Shown: positions 394 through 10,920 of the stretch, piece by piece
Layout of the letters: each line of letters starts with the position of its first letter
Position numbering within the stretch: position 1 is the stretch's first letter
Virus record (IMG/VR): IMGVR_UViG_2526164651_000001
DNA length: 10,920 bases
DNA from: a virus
Taxonomy: Duplodnaviria > Heunggongvirae > Uroviricota > Caudoviricetes
Strand: one strand, 5' to 3'
The notes under the pieces: model-generated
Seen by the model: the letters and a program-made list of their open reading frames with translations, nothing else
Told to the model about the DNA's origin: nothing
The model's database searches: none
Made by a program: the position numbers and the translations under genes

Positions 394-468
<75 letters not shown>

Positions 469-471
469 ATA

Positions 472-547
<76 letters not shown>

Positions 548-549
548 GC

Positions 550-626
550 TGGCCCACCACCGAGGACTCGAACCTCGCACCGTCAACTTAGAAGGTTGAT
601 GCTCTATCCGGATGAGCTAGTGGTGG
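550..626 (-). tRNA. tRNA-Arg (anticodon UCU, decodes AGA)
   Basis: Reverse complement CCACCACTAGCTCATCCGGATAGAGCATCAACCTTCTAAGTTGACGGTGCGAGGTTCGAGTCCTCGGTGGTGGGCCA: perfect 7-bp acceptor stem (C1-G72), D-stem GCTC/GAGC with A20, anticodon stem TCAAC/GTTGA, loop CTTCTAA, T-stem CGAGG/CCTCG, encoded CCA. Does not match host argU as I recall it. Confidence 0.75.
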
Positions 627-627
627 T

Positions 628-704
628 TGGTGGCCCTTGCTGGACTTGAACCAGCGACCTGGCGATTATGAGTCGCTCGCTCTGACCAACTGAGCTAAAG
701 GGCC
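628..704 (-). tRNA. tRNA-Ile2-like (anticodon CAU, probably lysidine-modified, decodes AUA); elongator Met not excluded
   Basis: Reverse complement GGCCCTTTAGCTCAGTTGGTCAGAGCGAGCGACTCATAATCGCCAGGTCGCTGGTTCAAGTCCAGCAAGGGCCACCA: perfect acceptor stem with C4-G69 and C5-G68 (TilS determinants in E. coli tRNA-Ile2), anticodon loop CTCATAA, T-arm GCTGG/TTCAAGT/CCAGC as in ileX. Roughly 90% similar to host ileX by eye. Confidence 0.8.
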
Positions 705-4582: not shown

Positions 4583-4858
4583 GTGGCTTCCATTTCCATC
4601 AGATGTCCTTCCTGCTCCGCTACTGAAGGCGTGGTGCGTAACGGCAAAAGCACTGCCGGGCATCAGCGCTATCTCTGCTCTCATTGCCGTAAAACATGGC
4701 AACTACAGTTCACTTACACCGCCTCTCAGCCCGGTACGCACCAGAAAATCATTGATATGGCCATGAATGGCGTCGGATGTCGCGCCAGTGCACGCATTAT
4801 GGGCGTTGGCCTCAACACGGTTTTACGTCACTTAAAAAACTCAGGCCGCAGTCGGTAA
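4583..4858 (+). CDS. insA: IS1 InsA
   Basis: 91-aa [42 protein letters not shown]..., the canonical IS1 InsA sequence. Confidence 0.9.
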
Positions 4859-5280
4859 CCTCGCGCATACAACCGGGCAGTGATGTGATTGTCTGCGCTG
4901 AAATGGACGAACATTGGGGCTACGTCGGTGCTAAATCACGTCAGCGCTGGCTGTTTTACGCGTATGACAGGATACGGAGGACGGTTGTGGCGCACGTCTT
5001 CGGTGAACGCACTCTGGCCACACTGGAGCGTCTTCTGAGCCTGCTGTCGGCCTTTGAGGTCGTGGTATGGATGACGGATGGCTGTCCGCTGTATGAATCA
5101 CGCCTGAAGGGAAAGCTGCACGTTATCAGCAAGCGTTACACTCAGCGCATTGAGCGACATAATCTGAATCTGAGACAACATCTGGCAAGGCTGGGACGGA
5201 AGTCACTGTCGTTCTCAAAATCGGTGGAGCTGCATGACAAGGTCATCGGGCATTATCTGAACATAAAACACTATCAGTAA
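4777..5280 (+). CDS. insB: IS1 InsB reading frame (expressed as InsAB' transposase by -1 frameshift at the A6C motif)
   Basis: 167-aa ORF in the -1 frame relative to insA; canonical IS1 insB sequence ending ...HYLNIKHYQ. Confidence 0.85.
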
Positions 5281-5489
5281 GTTGGAGTCATTACCCGCAA
5301 TTCATCCAGCAGTTTATCATTTCCCATAATGTCACTTACCCTCATCGGTAAAAAAATTGCCTTTCGACCATTACGATACATTATTGATTTTGGGGTTTCA
5401 GGGAAGTAATCCATTTCGACTATAACTGACAGGTCATCACGACGTATGACTGCGTATTTGCTACTAAATAGTTTCTTTATTTTTTCCAC
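5274..5489 (-). pseudogene. Hypothetical small protein gene whose 3' end runs into IS1
   Basis: Best start is GTG at 5489 preceded by GGAGG (4-nt spacer), giving (M)EKIKKLFSSKYAVIRRDDLSVIVEMDYFPETPKSIMYRNGRKAIFLPMRVSDIMGNDKLLDEL... The last ~7 codons and the stop are IS1 sequence. Occupies the position of rem in the K-12 Qin layout, but sequence identity is unverified. Confidence 0.3.
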
Positions 5490-5673
5490 GATGCCTCCAG
5501 GTTTATAAGTACAAACGGTTATATCCACATAGAGACAAAAATATTAATCTGAAAAACATTTATTTCACGCCGTATATTTGATTGTTTAATGTGCAAGTAC
5601 AATGACTTTTATTTTTGTTGTGTATATAATCAAATATATGGTTATTTTTCACCCTGCGTATTCAGCACGCAAC

Positions 5674-5696
5674 AAAAAACCCGCCGAAGCGGGTTT
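5674..5696 (-). terminator. Rho-independent terminator downstream of hok
   Basis: AAACCCGC-CGAA-GCGGGTTT. On the minus strand the stem is followed by a U6 tract (plus A-run 5674..5679). About 70 nt downstream of the hok stop. Confidence 0.5.
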
Positions 5697-5763
5697 AGTG
5701 CGGGTGCGTTGAGGATGCCTGACACATGAGAGGTGGCGAGGGATTTCTCCCCCGCCTGGTCTC

Positions 5764-5919
5764 TTACTCCTCAGGTTCGTAAGCTGTGAAGACAGCGACC
5801 TCCGTCTGGCCGGTTCGGATTCGTACCTCGCAGAGGTCTTTCCTCGTTACCAGTGCCGTCACTATGACGGTTAAACAGATGACGATCAGGGCGATTAACA
5901 TCGCCTTTTGCTGCTTCAT
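5764..5919 (-). CDS. hok: Hok/Gef-family type I toxin (HokD/RelF-like), 51 aa
   Basis: MKQQKAMLIALIVICLTVIVTALVTRKDLCEVRIRTGQTEVAVFTAYEPEE. ATG at 5919 preceded by AAGGAG with a 9-nt spacer. The track ORF (70 aa) starts at an upstream in-frame ATG that lacks a ribosome-binding site. Confidence 0.85.
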   Translation of the reverse strand: MKQQKAMLIALIVICLTVIVTALVTRKDLCEVRIRTGQTEVAVFTAYEPEE

Positions 5920-6256
5920 AGCCTGCTTCTCCTTGCCTTTCGGCACGTAAGAGGCTAACCTACATTTGTGAGACATAGATTGGGCCTCAGATTAATGTTA
6001 AGCGTCTTGCAGGACGCGTAATGTTAACTGGGGCTTTTCTCTGTCTGCCTTACAGTGGCATGCCCGAGGCAGACAGCCTCAAGCACCCGCAGCAATCTTA
6101 CCGATACCGATAAGAAAACGCTATTTTTTATTGCCAGCACCTTCTATCCAGGCTAATTTATCTGCGTCAGAACGGCGCAATGCGCTCGCCTGAGATACGT
6201 TTACTTGCCATGGTAACAACAGGTAACGGCAATTGCTGTTTCTGTTTTGTTTCCTT

Positions 6257-6288
6257 CAAAAACCCCGGACCATCAATCCGGGGTTTTT
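6257..6288. terminator. Bidirectional intrinsic terminator
   Basis: AAAAA-CCCCGGA-CCATCAA-TCCGGGG-TTTTT: 7-bp GC stem with an A-run on one side and a T-run on the other. On the minus strand it begins 5 nt after the stop of the 27-aa ORF. Confidence 0.5.
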
Positions 6289-6293
6289 GTTTG

Positions 6294-6377
6294 TTAACCC
6301 CAACGGCAAATCGAATACACCACCATCGCCATCGCCATCGCAATTCCTACCGTGGTGAATGCCTCAGGCCAGGTCAT
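6294..6377 (-). CDS. 27-aa hydrophobic mini-protein (candidate membrane peptide)
   Basis: ATG at 6377 preceded by AGGAGGTG (5-nt spacer). MTWPEAFTTVGIAMAMAMVVYSICRWG, stop at 6296..6294, then the terminator. Start overlaps the upstream mini-ORF stop as ATGA. Below the ORF-track size cutoff; found by manual translation. Confidence 0.4.
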   Translation of the reverse strand: MTWPEAFTTVGIAMAMAMVVYSICRWG

Positions 6378-6463
6378 TGATTCACCTCCTGCGGTGGTTC
6401 CGGTAGCGGCATCCAGTGAGTTGAGCTCTCTACTTCAACGCCGTCTTTGTCCACAAAAGCCAT
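6374..6463 (-). CDS. 29-aa acidic mini-ORF, translationally coupled to the 27-aa ORF
   Basis: ATG at 6463 with a weak GGGA-type Shine-Dalgarno. MAFVDKDGVEVESSTHWMPLPEPPQEVNQ. Its TGA stop overlaps the downstream ATG. Confidence 0.3.
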   Translation of the reverse strand: MAFVDKDGVEVESSTHWMPLPEPPQEVNQ

Positions 6464-6579
6464 CTTATTCCCGCCACGAGTGGGGCAAAAAACCTTATCC
6501 CAGGAACCGGGGAATACATTCCCGAGATCATCGAGAAGAATCACATCGCAATATTCAGCAGGAACTGCATCACTACAGC

Positions 6580-6735
6580 TTATCCAGCTAGAGTTACCGG
6601 AGAGTTGCCAGCCTTACGCATGGCCATTTCCACGATTTCAACCATATCTCCTGGTGGAATTTTACAAAGTTGCCCAATACATTTCTGCTGCCTGGCATAT
6701 TCGAGAATGTGCTCCAATTTGGTTCGATTAATCAT
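6580..6735 (-). CDS. 51-aa hypothetical protein, last gene of the HNH operon
   Basis: ATG at 6735 overlaps the stop of the 221-aa gene (TAATG); GGGAG Shine-Dalgarno 7 nt upstream. MINRTKLEHILEYARQQKCIGQLCKIPPGDMVEIVEMAMRKAGNSPVTLAG. Not in the ORF track because of size. Confidence 0.45.
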   Translation of the reverse strand: MINRTKLEHILEYARQQKCIGQLCKIPPGDMVEIVEMAMRKAGNSPVTLAG

Positions 6736-7400
6736 TATTTATCTCCCTTAAGCATGGCAGCGCGGCAGGCGTTCCAGCCATCAACATAATCAAACGTATT
6801 ACTATCGTTTGGCCCGATTTCATCCGGCACTATCGGCTCTGGTTGGATAGTGACGTTGGCAAAGGCAGCACGCAAACCGGTTTTAATTTCTTCGATTTCA
6901 TCAGAGCCAAGCGATGAATCTGACAGTGCGTGATGGAATGCGTAAGCCATGTCGTCGTTTACTGCAACCGGTACTGCCGGCGCTGCGTAAAGCGGTGTTA
7001 TATCTGCCCGAAAATCACATGCTTTATGCAGTCGTACCCAACGCTCAACTTCCGCTTTGTCAAAATATATAGCAGTGAACGTATTAGATTCCTGGTCAAC
7101 TTGAGTAAACGTCACCTTCCACGCTACAGCTACGGCTTTCCATCCATCAGGTTGTCGCATTCGCGGGGCAGCATAAAGCTCATGCATTCCATCAGGCAGC
7201 GAGTGACCCACATACTCACCGAACCCGTCAATACACATGCCCCCATCTTCAACAATGCATTCCGCTACAGGCTCTGCTTCCAGTGATGCCAGAGCGATAA
7301 GCGCCAGTTCACGAATTTCACCGCCGTCTATATCGTCAATATCATCGCGGCCAGAAATGTTAGCCAGCCATTGCAGTCGCTCTTTGGTAATAGTGGTCAT
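6735..7400 (-). CDS. Acidic 221-aa hypothetical prophage protein
   Basis: MTTITKERLQWLANISGRDDIDDIDGGEIRE...; rich in Asp/Glu, with an internal repeat (HELYAAP ... PLYAAPAVP). ATG overlaps the HNH stop (ATGA) and has a GAAGGGG Shine-Dalgarno. Family not recognised. Confidence 0.7.
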   Translation of the reverse strand: MTTITKERLQWLANISGRDDIDDIDGGEIRELALIALASLEAEPVAECIVEDGGMCIDGFGEYVGHSLPDGMHELYAAPRMRQPDGWKAVAVAWKVTFTQVDQESNTFTAIYFDKAEVERWVRLHKACDFRADITPLYAAPAVPVAVNDDMAYAFHHALSDSSLGSDEIEEIKTGLRAAFANVTIQPEPIVPDEIGPNDSNTFDYVDGWNACRAAMLKGDK

Positions 7401-7762
7401 GCCGTAGCCCCTTCTTGATATTTTTCAAACCAGAACACAACCGGGTCAGATTTCATTTCAACCAATCCCATACGAACCAGCGCTTTGCCTTTCCCGGACG
7501 CAAGGAATTCACGACGACCATCACTGATAATTCGTCGATAATCTTCCAGGCTACTGCAATGCTTGTGCAGATTGCATGGGTGGCATTCTGGTACCATGTT
7601 GGATATATCGTCACGTTCCTGGTGAAGCATATTTCCATCAAAACGAATGACCGGTTTTACATGGTCTGCATGCCACTTTTCGCCAAGTTCGCAGCCGCAA
7701 TAAGCGCAGCGACCACCGAACTTAATGCGCAGTTCTGCACGTTGTTTTTTCGTCAGTGCCAT
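7397..7762 (-). CDS. Small HNH endonuclease (~121 aa)
   Basis: Preferred start is ATG at 7762 (AAGGA Shine-Dalgarno, 8-nt spacer): MALTKKQRAELRIKFGGRCAYCGCELGEKWHADHVKPV...ECHPCNLHKH... This carries the CxxC...H-x-D-H...N...CxxC..H HNH/zinc-finger signature. The track ORF (151 aa) over-extends upstream into the neighbouring gene. Confidence 0.8.
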   Translation of the reverse strand: MALTKKQRAELRIKFGGRCAYCGCELGEKWHADHVKPVIRFDGNMLHQERDDISNMVPECHPCNLHKHCSSLEDYRRIISDGRREFLASGKGKALVRMGLVEMKSDPVVFWFEKYQEGATA

Positions 7763-8018: not shown

Positions 8019-8294
8019 GTGGCTTCCATTTCCATCAGATGTCCTTCCTGCTCCGCTACTGAAGGCGTGGTGCGTAACGGCAAAAGCACTGCCGGACATC
8101 AGCGCTATCTCTGCTCTCATTGCCGTAAAACATGGCAACTACAGTTCACTTACACCGCCTCTCAGCCCGGTACGCACCAGAAAATCATTGATATGGCCAT
8201 GAATGGCGTCGGATGTCGCGCCAGTGCACGCATTATGGGCGTTGGCCTCAACACGGTTTTACGTCACTTAAAAAACTCAGGCCGCAGTCGGTAA
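8019..8294 (+). CDS. insA: IS1 InsA (copy 2)
   Basis: 91-aa ORF identical in protein sequence to copy 1. Confidence 0.9.
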
Positions 8295-8570
8295 CCTCGC
8301 GCATACAACCGGGCAGTGATGTGATTGTCTGCGCTGAAATGGACGAACATTGGGGCTACGTCGGTGCTAAATCACGTCAGCGCTGGCTGTTTTACGCGTA
8401 TGACAGGATACGGAGGACGGTTGTGGCGCACGTCTTCGGTGAACGCACTCTGGCCACACTGGAGCGTCTTCTGAGCCTGCTGTCGGCCTTTGAGGTCGTG
8501 GTATGGATGACGGATGGCTGGCCGCTGTATGAATCACGCCTGAAGGGAAAGCTGCACGTTATCAGCAAGC
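8213..8570 (+). pseudogene. insB: IS1 insB, 5' part, disrupted by IS600 (3' part at 9835..9983)
   Basis: Track ORF 8213..8617 matches InsB up to ...HVISK and then reads into the IS600 end. The remainder of insB ([15 protein letters not shown]...HYQ) resumes at 9835. Confidence 0.85.
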
Positions 8571-8613
8571 TGAGGTGTACTGGCAATAGCGGACACTACC
8601 ATTTGTTCTTTTT

Positions 8614-9432
8614 TTAAGCAGCCATCTGATGATATTTTTCCCTGAAGGCTGCCGGGGAGATATTCCCCAGACGAGAGTGACGACGCTGACGATTGTAGAA
8701 AATCTCAATGTATTCCCGTATTACTGAGATGGCTTCATCCCGGTTATTAAAACGATAGTGGCTCAGGCTCTCATTTTTCAGCGTTCCCCAGAAGCTTTCC
8801 ATCGGAGCATTGTCGTAACAGTTACCTTTACGCGACATTGATGTTTTCAGACCAAACTGCTCCTGTATGACCCGGTAATCGTATGCGCAGTACTGTGAAC
8901 CTCGATCAGAGTGGTGGATTAGCCCGGCAGGTGGGCGCTGGCTCCTGAGCGCCATAAACAGGGCTTTACCTGTCAGCTCTTTTGTCATGCGCTCTCCCAT
9001 GGCGTAGCCGACAATTTCGCACGTATAAACATCTTTGATGCCAGCGAGGTACAACCATCCCTCCTGTGTGGCAACATACGTCAGGTCCGCCACCCAGACC
9101 TGATTTGGTGCTGTAGGAGCGAACGTCTGGTTCAGCAGATTTGGCGCAACTGGCAGATTGTGGTTCGGGTTCGTAGTCGCTCTGAACTTGCGTTTCTGCT
9201 TACAGCGTAGCCTTAGCTCCTTACGAAGACGTGCCAGTCGGTCACGACCAACGATGATGCCATTCTCTGCCAGCTCCGTCTGGAGCCGCCGGGTTCCATA
9301 TGTTTCGCGAGTGCGGATATGTGCCACCTTAATCTCCAGTTTTAGCCGCTCATCACTTTGTTTTCTGTCTGAGGGTTCATGCTGTACCCAGTTGTAATAA
9401 CCGCTCCTGGATACACCAAATACCTGACACAT
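8614..9432 (-). CDS. IS600 transposase OrfB (copy 2)
   Basis: 272 aa; differs from copy 1 at two residues (C/R and L/P). Confidence 0.85.
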
Positions 9433-9467
9433 CGCTTCAATGGGAAATTGTTGTCGCCATTGTTCGA

Positions 9468-9770
9468 TTAACGCGTATTTTTCAGCGACTCCTGTGCAAA
9501 ATACGCTGTTGCTTTTTTTAATATATCTCGCTCAAGGCGAGCTTCATTTAACGCCTTACGCAGTTGCAGAATTTCAGATTCCAGTTCAGCCACCGTGCGG
9601 GAACCAGGAGTACCGAGCCCTTTTCTGGCGGCGGTAACCCATTGTCCTAAAGTGCCTTCAGGAAGAGATAATCGGGAAGCGCCTTCACTGATCGAAAGTT
9701 GATTTTCAAGAACCGTTCTGACAGCTTCGGCTTTGAACTCTTTAGAGTAACGTTGGGTTTTTCTGCTCAT
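9468..9770 (-). CDS. IS600 OrfA (copy 2)
   Basis: 100 aa, identical to copy 1; A7 frameshift run at plus 9513..9519. Confidence 0.85.
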   Translation of the reverse strand: MSRKTQRYSKEFKAEAVRTVLENQLSISEGASRLSLPEGTLGQWVTAARKGLGTPGSRTVAELESEILQLRKALNEARLERDILKKATAYFAQESLKNTR

Positions 9771-9998
9771 TATTAGCTCCTTCTGATGCCATTCTATTTC
9801 AGGAAGGAGTGTCCGTTAAACTCAGGCTACCTCAAGCGTTACACTCAGCGCATTGAGCGACATAATCTGAATCTGAGACAACATCTGGCAAGGCTGGGAC
9901 GGAAGTCACTGTCGTTCTCAAAATCGGTGGAGCTGCATGACAAGGTCATCGGGCATTATCTGAACATAAAACACTATCAGTAAGTTGGAGTCATTACC

Positions 9999-10118: not shown

Positions 10119-10343
10119 TTATTCAGTTCTGGATTTTGTCGCCCTGCGTATCCGCGCTTTCGCATTACGCTCAATCTGTATCAGCTTTTCTATATTTCTC
10201 CGCCTTTCCTGTTCCTCCTGGCGCAATAGCCTTACATCATCTGCCAGTCTGGTTTCTCTTTTTGCCACAGAGAGCATCCAGTCAAACGGCTCCACAACCG
10301 CACCGCAGATTTTACAGCAGACCTGACGCTCTTTTTCGTAACC
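10119..10343 (-). pseudogene. 5'-truncated ORF fragment abutting the IS911-like end (Cys-containing, basic coiled C-terminus)
   Basis: Track ORF 10119..10358 starts inside the IS terminal repeat, so its true start was probably removed. Flank-encoded part: GYEKERQVCCKICGAVVEPFDWMLSVAKRETRLADDVRLLRQEEQERRRNIEKLIQIERNAKARIRRATKSRTE. Confidence 0.25.

Positions 10344-10920
<577 letters not shown>

Follow-up and report, generated by a model that had tools for sequence, protein, structure and literature searches.

A small open reading frame (sORF) of 27 codons lies on the minus strand of the Caudoviricetes DNA recorded as IMGVR_UViG_2526164651_000001 in IMG/VR; we refer to the whole stretch analyzed, 10,920 nt, as the window. 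Judged by comparison of its homologues, this sORF is a genuine, conserved protein-coding gene. We consider it probable that it represents a mobile phage gene for a single-helix membrane peptide, translationally coupled to the gene that precedes it and accessory to the phage. Its coordinates are given in Table 1 with those of its neighbors.

Conservation and Coding Potential of the 27-Codon Frame

Viewed alone, the window says little: 27 open reading frames (ORFs) of at least 20 amino acids (aa) overlap the same 1.1-kb stretch. A 27-codon ORF is within chance in one sequence, and the case for a real gene is therefore comparative. We scanned IMG/VR with a pattern derived from the first seven codons (ATGANNTGGCCNGARGCNTTY), which fixes codons 1-7 and the A of the ATGA junction. 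At least 120 loci were recovered, and a hydrophobic ORF of 20-40 aa was found in 107 of the 120 listed. The IMG/VR matches listed, taken together with the annotated phage and Escherichia coli loci and the window, provide at least 111 instances of exactly 27 codons, corresponding to 58 distinct DNA sequences and 38 distinct peptides. In a control scan of 596 Gb of bacterial genomes with the motif ATGNNNTGGCCNGARGCNTTY, the ORF was small and hydrophobic in only 4 of the 120 matches listed; most of these are essentially chance matches, and the motif is too unspecific for a taxonomic survey.

The substitutions among these copies bear the marks of a translated frame. Over codons 8-27, which the search pattern does not constrain, column entropy is 0.49, 0.29 and 0.84 at codon positions 1, 2 and 3, respectively. 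The pooled ratio of nonsynonymous to synonymous changes (pN/pS) is 0.42 in the frame of the sORF, as compared to 0.71 and 1.73 in the other two sense frames. One antisense frame shares its wobble positions with the sORF and scores similarly; it is that of a plus-strand ORF (6352-6591) opening inside the sORF, so that in the window it does not run open through the full sORF. Seventeen representatives that are less than 90 % identical show 67 amino-acid differences from the consensus versus 98.5 +/- 4.8 when substitutions are placed at random, and none of 5000 simulations came down to 67 (P<2e-4). The chance that all 17 would stay free of stop codons is 0.0036.

Changes in length also respect the frame, with in-frame variants of 25, 29, 31, 33, and 35 aa and a copy found by blastn that carries an in-frame 6-nt deletion. 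The stop codon is TAA or TGA at the same position across contexts, and even at about 70 % DNA identity the copies all keep an open frame of 27 codons. An initial annotation of the window, made from its letters alone, had singled out this hydrophobic ORF with its strong ribosome-binding site and ATGA overlap, and had proposed conservation of the frame in homologous regions as a check. Such conservation is clearly positive for the 27-aa ORF, which homologues, selection tests and homology bounded by the ORF all mark as a conserved coding unit.

The sequence features that drew attention to the sORF are all present on the minus strand at the positions given in Table 1, namely the near-consensus Shine-Dalgarno (SD) sequence, the ATGA overlap and the hydrophobic core encoded in part by (CATCGC)3. 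The SD sequence sits within the closing codons of the DUF551 frame upstream (…PPQEVNQ). Of 124 homologous copies, 123 have an SD-like motif ahead of them; in the minimum-free-energy fold of the window transcript the SD sequence is partly paired. The perfect (GCGATG)3 repeat is specific to the lineage of the window, the common allele (GCGATGGCGGTGGCGCTG) encoding AMAVAL at this place. Database alleles read for tract length (proteins P0049, P0054-P0058, and P0060-P0063) contain in-frame expansions of the (GCGATG/GCGGTG)n tract that give peptides of 29, 31, 33, and 35 aa (e.g., …GIAMAMAMAMAMAVAL…), and the tract is a slippage hotspot.

Distribution and Genomic Contexts

A tblastn search detected the peptide in 94 of 50,697 phage records. 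Among the carriers are the phages 933W, VT1-Sakai, VT2-Sakai, BP-4795, Min27, and ArgO145, as well as Av-05, a virulent myovirus of the Vequintavirinae. With the 82-nt ORF body as a blastn query, which omitted the first two codons to keep the overlapping gene upstream out of the count, we found matches in 1541 of 5426 complete E. coli genomes (about 28 %). These amount to 2484 places, 161 of them on plasmids, and genomes with the sORF often hold several copies. No RefSeq annotation lies under the blastn match in any of the 60 rows listed.

Six contexts with annotation were compared, and the ORF has 27 codons in every one. In five of the six, its start codon and the stop codon of the gene before it overlap as ATGA; VT1-Sakai has two ATGs at the junction, ATGATGA, the upstream one overlapping the stop. 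The ATGA overlap was seen in the window and at loci L001, L002, L004, L006, L007, L250, and L251, and in 933W, ArgO145, Av-05, L001, and L002 it follows upstream genes that are unrelated to each other. The preceding genes encode DUF551 proteins, a 131-aa zinc-ribbon/coiled-coil protein, a 114-aa protein, and the 220-aa protein of Av-05. They fall into at least four unrelated families, and about two thirds of the upstream genes end in the DUF551 motif …HWMPLPEPP. In VT1-Sakai, xis-int follows directly downstream of the sORF; in 933W the sORF comes behind genes of the Ea22-like and DksA-like kind. Downstream, 64 distinct contexts were counted, in many of which the next gene starts 2-4 nt past the stop codon. 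Two phage-like plasmids, one of them with a gene for a DNA polymerase III theta subunit as well, leave 82 nt unexplained between a DUF551 gene and the next annotated gene on the same strand; the ORF accounts for this gap exactly.

From one context to another the ORF is 71-93 % identical; identity in the 100 nt on either side drops to a background of 45-55 %, and beyond the ORF borders only the 20 nt holding the SD sequence are sometimes shared. By these alignments, the sORF is an 84-nt module that travels between phages. Av-05 offers a further case of exchange. Here the sORF directly follows a homologue (L007 842-1504) of the 221-aa protein encoded upstream in the window, the two proteins being 45 % identical (E = 3e-51). 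In the lineage of the window, a DUF551 gene lies between the 221-aa gene and the sORF. The comparison shows that an accessory block, composed of a 221-aa-type protein and the sORF, has been exchanged between temperate and virulent coliphages. The 60 C-terminal residues of the 221-aa protein and its Av-05 homologue are nearly identical.

Viral contigs of 40-66 % GC also carry sORFs of the WPEAF type, again overlapping an ORF upstream. One of these, L091, is the end of a high-GC prophage with an integrase, several DUF551-like genes and a WPEAF-type sORF closing the operon. A further relative lies on a contig of 29 % GC (L253), and the bacterial genome scan returned one plausible relative in Candidatus Erwinia dacicola. 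The family may reach well beyond the phages of enterobacteria, the relatives found by a short motif being less certain. We did not find the sORF in positions 27,000-36,000 (int to N) of phage lambda, nor downstream of the K-12 DUF551 gene yfdS in CPS-53. Lambda orf28 encodes an unrelated acidic peptide.

Toxin-antitoxin modules are recurrent neighbors of the sORF. It very often lies directly upstream of hok/sok (L004, L254, L255, L256, and the window), and roughly a quarter of the sampled downstream contexts start with the same hok-type leader. At L002 and L006 the neighbor is another toxin-antitoxin pair. Such modules seem to insert preferentially at the end of the sORF operon.

A Predicted Single-Pass Membrane Peptide

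By prediction, the product crosses the membrane once, as a single helix. Its best 19-residue segment, AFTTVGIAMAMAMVVYSIC, has a mean Kyte-Doolittle value of 1.89, and all 17 representatives stay hydrophobic. Across the family the pattern WPEAF…G-x-A-x-A-x-A…Y-S-x-C-R-W-G is conserved. Counting only residues that the search pattern does not fix, G11 is retained in 37 of the 38 distinct peptides, A13 in 33, A15 in 36, A17 in 35, and Y21 in 37, and the C-terminal end is similarly constant (C24 in 35, R25 in 33, W26 in 37, and G27 in 32). G11/A15 and A13/A17 form small-xxx-small pairs, which are the usual signature of helix-helix packing in membranes. We also considered a lipoprotein or signal peptide and rejected it: Y-S-I-C does not form a lipobox, a positive N-region is missing, and C24 is replaced by F in one clade.

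A hidden Markov model (HMM) built from database variants gave 49 matches at E <= 1e-3 against 1.84 billion representative proteins. Forty-six of these are shorter than 90 aa, and two of the three longer ones (143-206 aa) are fusions with an upstream protein. Among the matches whose sequences were read, several remote ones retain W-P-E-A-x4-G-x-A-x-A-x-A (e.g., MNITNWPEAFTYIGCAFAIAIIFYSMFRWG, MEISWPEAIMWIGIAFAAALAIYSIMRWGD, and MTWPEAFAFVGVAVAAFGALALIVRSVLNSGRDDDA). In-frame fusions of the upstream protein to the peptide were detected in P0086 (78 aa), P0089 (143 aa), and P0093 (206 aa, Ea22-like). The P0093 junction (L252, 156-776) retains GGAGAA-N7-ATG, and P0089 retains an internal Met; the free peptide could still be produced from the P0093 gene. 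Such fusions are a possible "Rosetta-stone" hint of functional linkage.

Relation to Known Families

The 27-aa ORF belongs to no family in Pfam, NCBIfam, PHROGs, or PADLOC. The initial annotation had not recognized it as a known E. coli small protein, and the family libraries, the RefSeq rows, and the protein database bear this out. For the homologue search in the protein collection, two peptide variants were concatenated as the query. The exact peptide of the window is not in the 15-billion-protein collection; the common allele is, and it is sporadically called in GenBank (79 contigs) as "hypothetical protein" or "bacteriophage protein." A 40-aa variant extended at the C-terminus is named "putative prophage protein," and a few NCBI calls at contig edges, in the frame of the sORF, are named "DUF551 domain-containing protein, partial"; none of these entries assigns a function. 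The protein database clusters the 27-aa ORF with DUF551 proteins and places no precomputed Pfam domain on the peptide. The 27-aa ORF itself is not similar to DUF551. We take both the clustering and the "partial" names as labeling artefacts.

In the literature on DUF551 and exo-xis small ORFs, we found no description of the 27-aa peptide. Neither a modeling paper on the exo-xis region (PMC8614690) nor the Ea22 structure paper (PMC10834534) mentions a membrane sORF. The sORF is best described as an uncharacterized and essentially unannotated member of a familiar class, the small membrane proteins encoded by phages.

Three groups of known proteins invite comparison. KdpF, AcrZ, MgtS, PmrR, CydX, and MgrB resemble the peptide in being shorter than 50 aa, with one hydrophobic helix and short polar ends, and in often going unannotated. 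The KdpF model TIGR02115 matches the helix weakly (E = 0.024, 14.7 bits against a cut-off of 26.85), so the peptide is not a member. Unlike proteins of the KdpF/AcrZ type, the sORF is borne by phages and is not linked to a transporter or sensor gene, and no counterpart to the WPEAF and YSxCRWG motifs is known in any of these six families.

Hok/Gef, TisB, DinQ, ShoB, Ibs, and Ldr, type I toxins of E. coli and its prophages, share with the peptide a tiny size and hydrophobicity; the peptide, too, is encoded in a prophage, and in the window the sORF adjoins hok/sok. It nevertheless has no sequence relationship to them and no conserved antisense or flanking regulatory RNA. Type I toxins are silenced at translation, whereas the sORF has a strong SD sequence and is coupled to ordinary genes.

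The third group comprises Kil, CIII, Orf28, Orf60a, Orf61, Orf63, Ea8.5, and Ea22, which are alike in neighborhood and in their non-essential, accessory character. The timing of expression is probably the same as that of the small lambdoid proteins of the early-left, exo-xis, and nin regions. These lambda proteins are soluble or amphipathic, and the sORF product differs from them in being a predicted membrane helix. Weak matches confined to the helix were also obtained with phrog_4612 (E = 0.019) and phrog_38566 (E = 0.01). They are not significant, different variants of the sORF match different PHROGs, and membership in either cannot be claimed.

Possible Mode of Action and Alternative Explanations

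An SD sequence combined with a start/stop overlap is the classical arrangement for termination-reinitiation. We propose that the peptide would be made together with the preceding protein in this manner, when the early or accessory operon of the phage is transcribed after infection or induction. It would then enter the inner membrane as a single helix and act through helix-helix packing, either with itself or with a membrane protein of the host or phage. Contacts in this packing would be made by the conserved small-residue stripe of G11, A13, A15, and A17, together with the interfacial motifs W3-P-E-A-F7 and Y21-S-x-C-R-W-G27. The role would be accessory and not essential.

A number of points weigh against this proposal. 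We infer the packing on a membrane target by analogy only, and the two flanks of the helix each have a net charge near zero, so that the positive-inside rule gives no orientation. The pooled pN/pS of 0.42 means only moderate constraint, and the sampled sequences are related, which makes the shuffle P-values given above (P<2e-4) optimistic. In the IMG/VR set, conservation of codons 1-7 and of ATGA is partly circular, and independent support for the first codons and the overlap comes only from the loci derived by tblastn and blastn. The copy in the window may be silent, as its operon lacks the upstream part and the coupling frame. Finally, the string of the peptide occurs neither in the searchable literature nor in the supplements of a ribosome-profiling paper on small genes of enterohaemorrhagic E. 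coli (EHEC) Sakai (PMC5597208); prophage early genes would be silent under the conditions of that study.

The coupling itself can be read differently. The peptide might serve as a membrane tether or partner of the upstream protein, of DUF551 or Ea22 type, with coupling setting a fixed ratio between the two; we find this unlikely, while granting it some weight. The overlap with the stop codon of the preceding gene throughout, the DUF551 ending of about two thirds of the upstream genes, the three in-frame fusions, and the L091 sORF closing an operon with many DUF551-like genes would all fit such a partnership. A specific protein partner is nonetheless hard to reconcile with at least four unrelated upstream families. 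The fusions are rare, and P0093, the one that was looked up, is on a single contig. Its junction, the sole one read as DNA, keeps the internal SD sequence and ATG, and P0089 keeps its internal Met. Moreover, the linkage to DUF551 could be historical, because the SD sequence lies inside the C-terminal codons of DUF551.

The initial annotation had likened the layout to that of regulatory peptides or small membrane toxins. We think it improbable that the peptide is a small membrane-damaging toxin, whether of type I or a host-killing peptide of the kil type. Its 27 aa and single hydrophobic helix would suit a toxin, TisB, DinQ, and ShoB being similar in size, and it occurs in prophage accessory regions, often beside hok/sok or other toxin-antitoxin modules. 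Against this, Pfam, NCBIfam, PHROGs, and PADLOC reveal no homology to a toxin family, and no Rfam family covers the ORF. Homology ends at the ORF borders, which leaves no conserved antisense promoter or RNA and no conserved mRNA-fold element. The SD sequence is strong and appears unoccluded and constitutive, the gene is coupled to ordinary genes, and its mid-operon position in the phage-like plasmids is a poor fit for a tightly repressed product.

It is more improbable still that the act of translation alone matters, with the sORF as a coupling spacer or leader that hands ribosomes on or controls a terminator and the peptide itself without function. A next gene that often starts 2-4 nt past the stop codon would create a chain of coupled genes, and elsewhere a terminator follows within a few nt of the stop. 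Yet amino-acid sequence, length, and hydrophobicity vary well below neutral expectation, and 64 distinct downstream contexts offer no common regulated target. A chance ORF in DNA that is conserved for other reasons or recently shared has hardly any probability: the frame is short, of a length common by chance in one sequence and unannotated by RefSeq in all 60 genomes listed, but third-position periodicity, the deficit of amino-acid changes, frame-preserving indels, copies that are open over 27 codons down to about 70 % DNA identity, and homology bounded by start and stop all speak against it.

We thus retain as the probable reading a coupled, accessory phage gene for a single-helix membrane peptide.

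The Upstream Mini-ORF Is the Tail of a DUF551 Pseudogene

The initial annotation had paired the 27-aa ORF with an acidic 29-aa mini-ORF that overlaps it upstream. This second frame, MAFVDKDGVEVESSTHWMPLPEPPQEVNQ (minus strand, 6374-6463), opens at an ATG at 6463, and runs further upstream to a GTG at 6544, giving 56 aa. The 56-aa fragment matches Pfam PF04448 with 44.4 bits (gathering cut-off 22, E = 3.1e-11) over profile positions 22-68 of 68, the terminal HWMPLPEPP included. In L001 (NZ_CP065613), an E. coli locus that is 99.4 % identical to the window, the DUF551 gene is intact (121 aa, PF04448 69.9 bits), and its start corresponds to window position 6735. The alignment to L001 reveals a 4-nt deletion and a substitution at about 6589-6591 of the window, and the frameshift due to the deletion leads to a premature TAA at 6580-6582. 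By this comparison, the DUF551 gene of the window is a pseudogene and the 29-aa ORF is the last 29 codons of that gene, not an independent gene. The match to PF04448 and the intact copy in L001 leave no room for an acidic partner gene, and the proposed pair reduces to one real small ORF and one pseudogene tail.

A programmed frameshift joining DUF551 to the peptide was considered and rejected. The sORF is in the -1/+2 frame and no slippery heptamer precedes the stop, a prfB-like +1 shift would miss the frame, and the sORF also follows genes other than DUF551.

The Copy in the Window and Its Prophage Surroundings

The genes around the 27-aa ORF are all on the minus strand. At L001 the annotated order is an HNH endonuclease, a 221-aa hypothetical protein, the 121-aa DUF551-domain protein, Hok/Gef, a hypothetical protein, DUF1367, DUF1364, DUF1133, and an ORF6N protein. 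The region is an accessory, nin-like part of a lambdoid prophage. In the window, the backbone that matches L001 is cut up by insertion sequence (IS) elements, and homology to L001 breaks just upstream of the HNH gene (7766/7767).

Table 1. Features around the small ORF, with positions in the window and the evidence for each.
Feature	Position	Strand	Evidence
27-codon sORF with TAA stop, MTWPEAFTTVGIAMAMAMVVYSICRWG; predicted single-pass membrane peptide	6294..6377	-	ORF, homologues, selection tests
Shine-Dalgarno sequence AGGAGGTG	6383..6390	-	5 nt upstream of ATG
ATGA start/stop overlap of DUF551 frame and sORF	6374..6377	-	TGA 6374-6376, ATG 6375-6377
Hexamer repeat (GCGATG)3, encoding AMAMAM in the predicted membrane helix	6324..6341	-	(CATCGC)3 on plus strand
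C-terminal fragment of the frameshifted DUF551 gene, 56-aa ORF from GTG	6374..6544	-	PF04448 match
N-terminal DUF551 fragment, 51 aa	6580..6735	-	Ends at premature TAA
221-aa hypothetical protein gene, same operon, upstream of the DUF551 fragments	6735..7400	-	Homologue in Av-05
HNH endonuclease gene, first of the remaining operon fragment	7397..7762	-	L001 homology
Bidirectional intrinsic-terminator hairpin (A-tract, CCCCGGA…TCCGGGG, U-tract)	6257..6289	.	Fold, U-run
hok/sok type I toxin-antitoxin module (mok 5764-5976, hok 5764-5919)	5764..6088	-	Rfam

Apart from the 4-nt deletion, seven substitutions separate the window from L001 over 1.6 kb. Two of these substitutions, at 6332 and 6326, are inside the 84-nt ORF, where they convert GTG and CTG to ATG and thereby AMAVAL to AMAMAM, completing the perfect (GCGATG)3. 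This looks like repeat homogenization more than two independent point mutations. The 27-aa frame is intact in the window and its SD sequence is retained. The upstream DUF551 frame stops about 200 nt before the ATG of the sORF, and because of this break translational coupling is lost. The minus strand of 5700-7500 showed no sigma-70-like promoter. With a prophage eroded by IS elements, a broken frame upstream and no coupling, expression of this copy is uncertain.

The terminator that the initial annotation had placed after the stop codon is real. It begins 4-5 nt past the TAA, with a predicted free energy (dG) of -23.7 kcal/mol and z = -4.3; the U-run is on the minus strand, and the hairpin also reads as a terminator on the plus strand. 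It is common to the window, L001, and L002. As part of the sORF unit, however, it does not hold up, since a terminator-like hairpin is found within 60 nt downstream in only about 15 of the 120 homologous copies listed. The terminator belongs to the local context and marks the border with the hok/sok module.

Rfam RF01794 (sok/hok-leader) matches 5914-6088 with 118 bits. Within 5500-6800, sok is the only Rfam match above its gathering score, and none lies over the 27-aa ORF. That the sORF might be part of hok/sok was rejected: the Rfam match ends at 6088, and most of the 64 downstream contexts are without hok. A sub-threshold match to IsrK, a Salmonella prophage small RNA, lies just downstream of hok (5674-5755, minus strand; 30.6 bits versus gathering 50, E = 2e-4), and may reflect only the 3' fold or the terminator of the hok mRNA. 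Between hok and the DUF1367 gene is an 84-aa ORF (5274-5528, minus strand) whose 3' end abuts an IS1 copy at 4583-5280; it appears to correspond to a 70-aa hypothetical gene of L001 (4076-4288).

Four tRNA genes are clustered at the left end of the window (394-704, minus strand: Gly-TCC, Thr-TGT, Arg-TCT, and Met-CAT), close to where the prophage has its ORF6N and Q-like late-regulatory region. An IS3-family element is present in two near-identical copies (1465-2621 and 8614-9770, minus strand), each encoding a 100-aa orfA product and a 272-aa transposase. Stretches related to IS1 are on the plus strand at 4583-5280, 8019-8617, and 9786-9983. The second IS3-family copy interrupts an IS1 copy: the InsB frame of the latter breaks off at 8617 and continues at 9786. 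A fragment of an rve-type transposase is at 10352-10873. This heavy load of IS elements suggests a Shigella-like genome. Next to the transposase fragment, a 79-aa ORF (10119-10358, minus strand) is a homologue of the zinc-ribbon/coiled-coil protein (131 aa) of L002, with 33 % identity across 70 aa (E = 4e-11). Unlike the 131-aa protein elsewhere, this 79-aa ORF is not followed by the sORF.

Significance

The sORF is a conserved gene in about 28 % of complete E. coli genomes, and it is absent from RefSeq annotation and from the curated family libraries that we checked. Unannotated phage sORFs are common; this one of 27 aa stands out by its very wide distribution and by its presence in the medically important phages encoding Shiga toxin (Stx), among them the reference phages 933W, VT1-Sakai, and VT2-Sakai. 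The sORF sits in accessory regions of the exo-xis and nin-like kind, and genes there are reported to act on the lysogeny and induction of Stx prophages (PMC3824215; PMC10834534). For annotation, two lessons emerge: calls such as the 29-aa ORF can be fragments of pseudogenes, and gaps after DUF551 genes that are exactly the size of a gene hide a real one.

Small membrane peptides are a growing class of regulators, and the clear motifs, natural length variants, and rare upstream fusions make this sORF easy to test. A bolder view, which we hold to be a long shot, is that the WPEAF-helix peptide might be a widespread early effector of temperate and virulent phages, in hosts from about 29 % to 66 % GC. 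It would recruit its DUF551- or Ea22-type partners to the inner membrane or inhibit a conserved membrane protein of the host, and in Stx phages it might thereby affect superinfection, host physiology, or the choice between lysis and lysogeny. If true, a gene that essentially all annotations lack would gain its first function, and the enigmatic DUF551 and Ea22 proteins would acquire a place in the cell.

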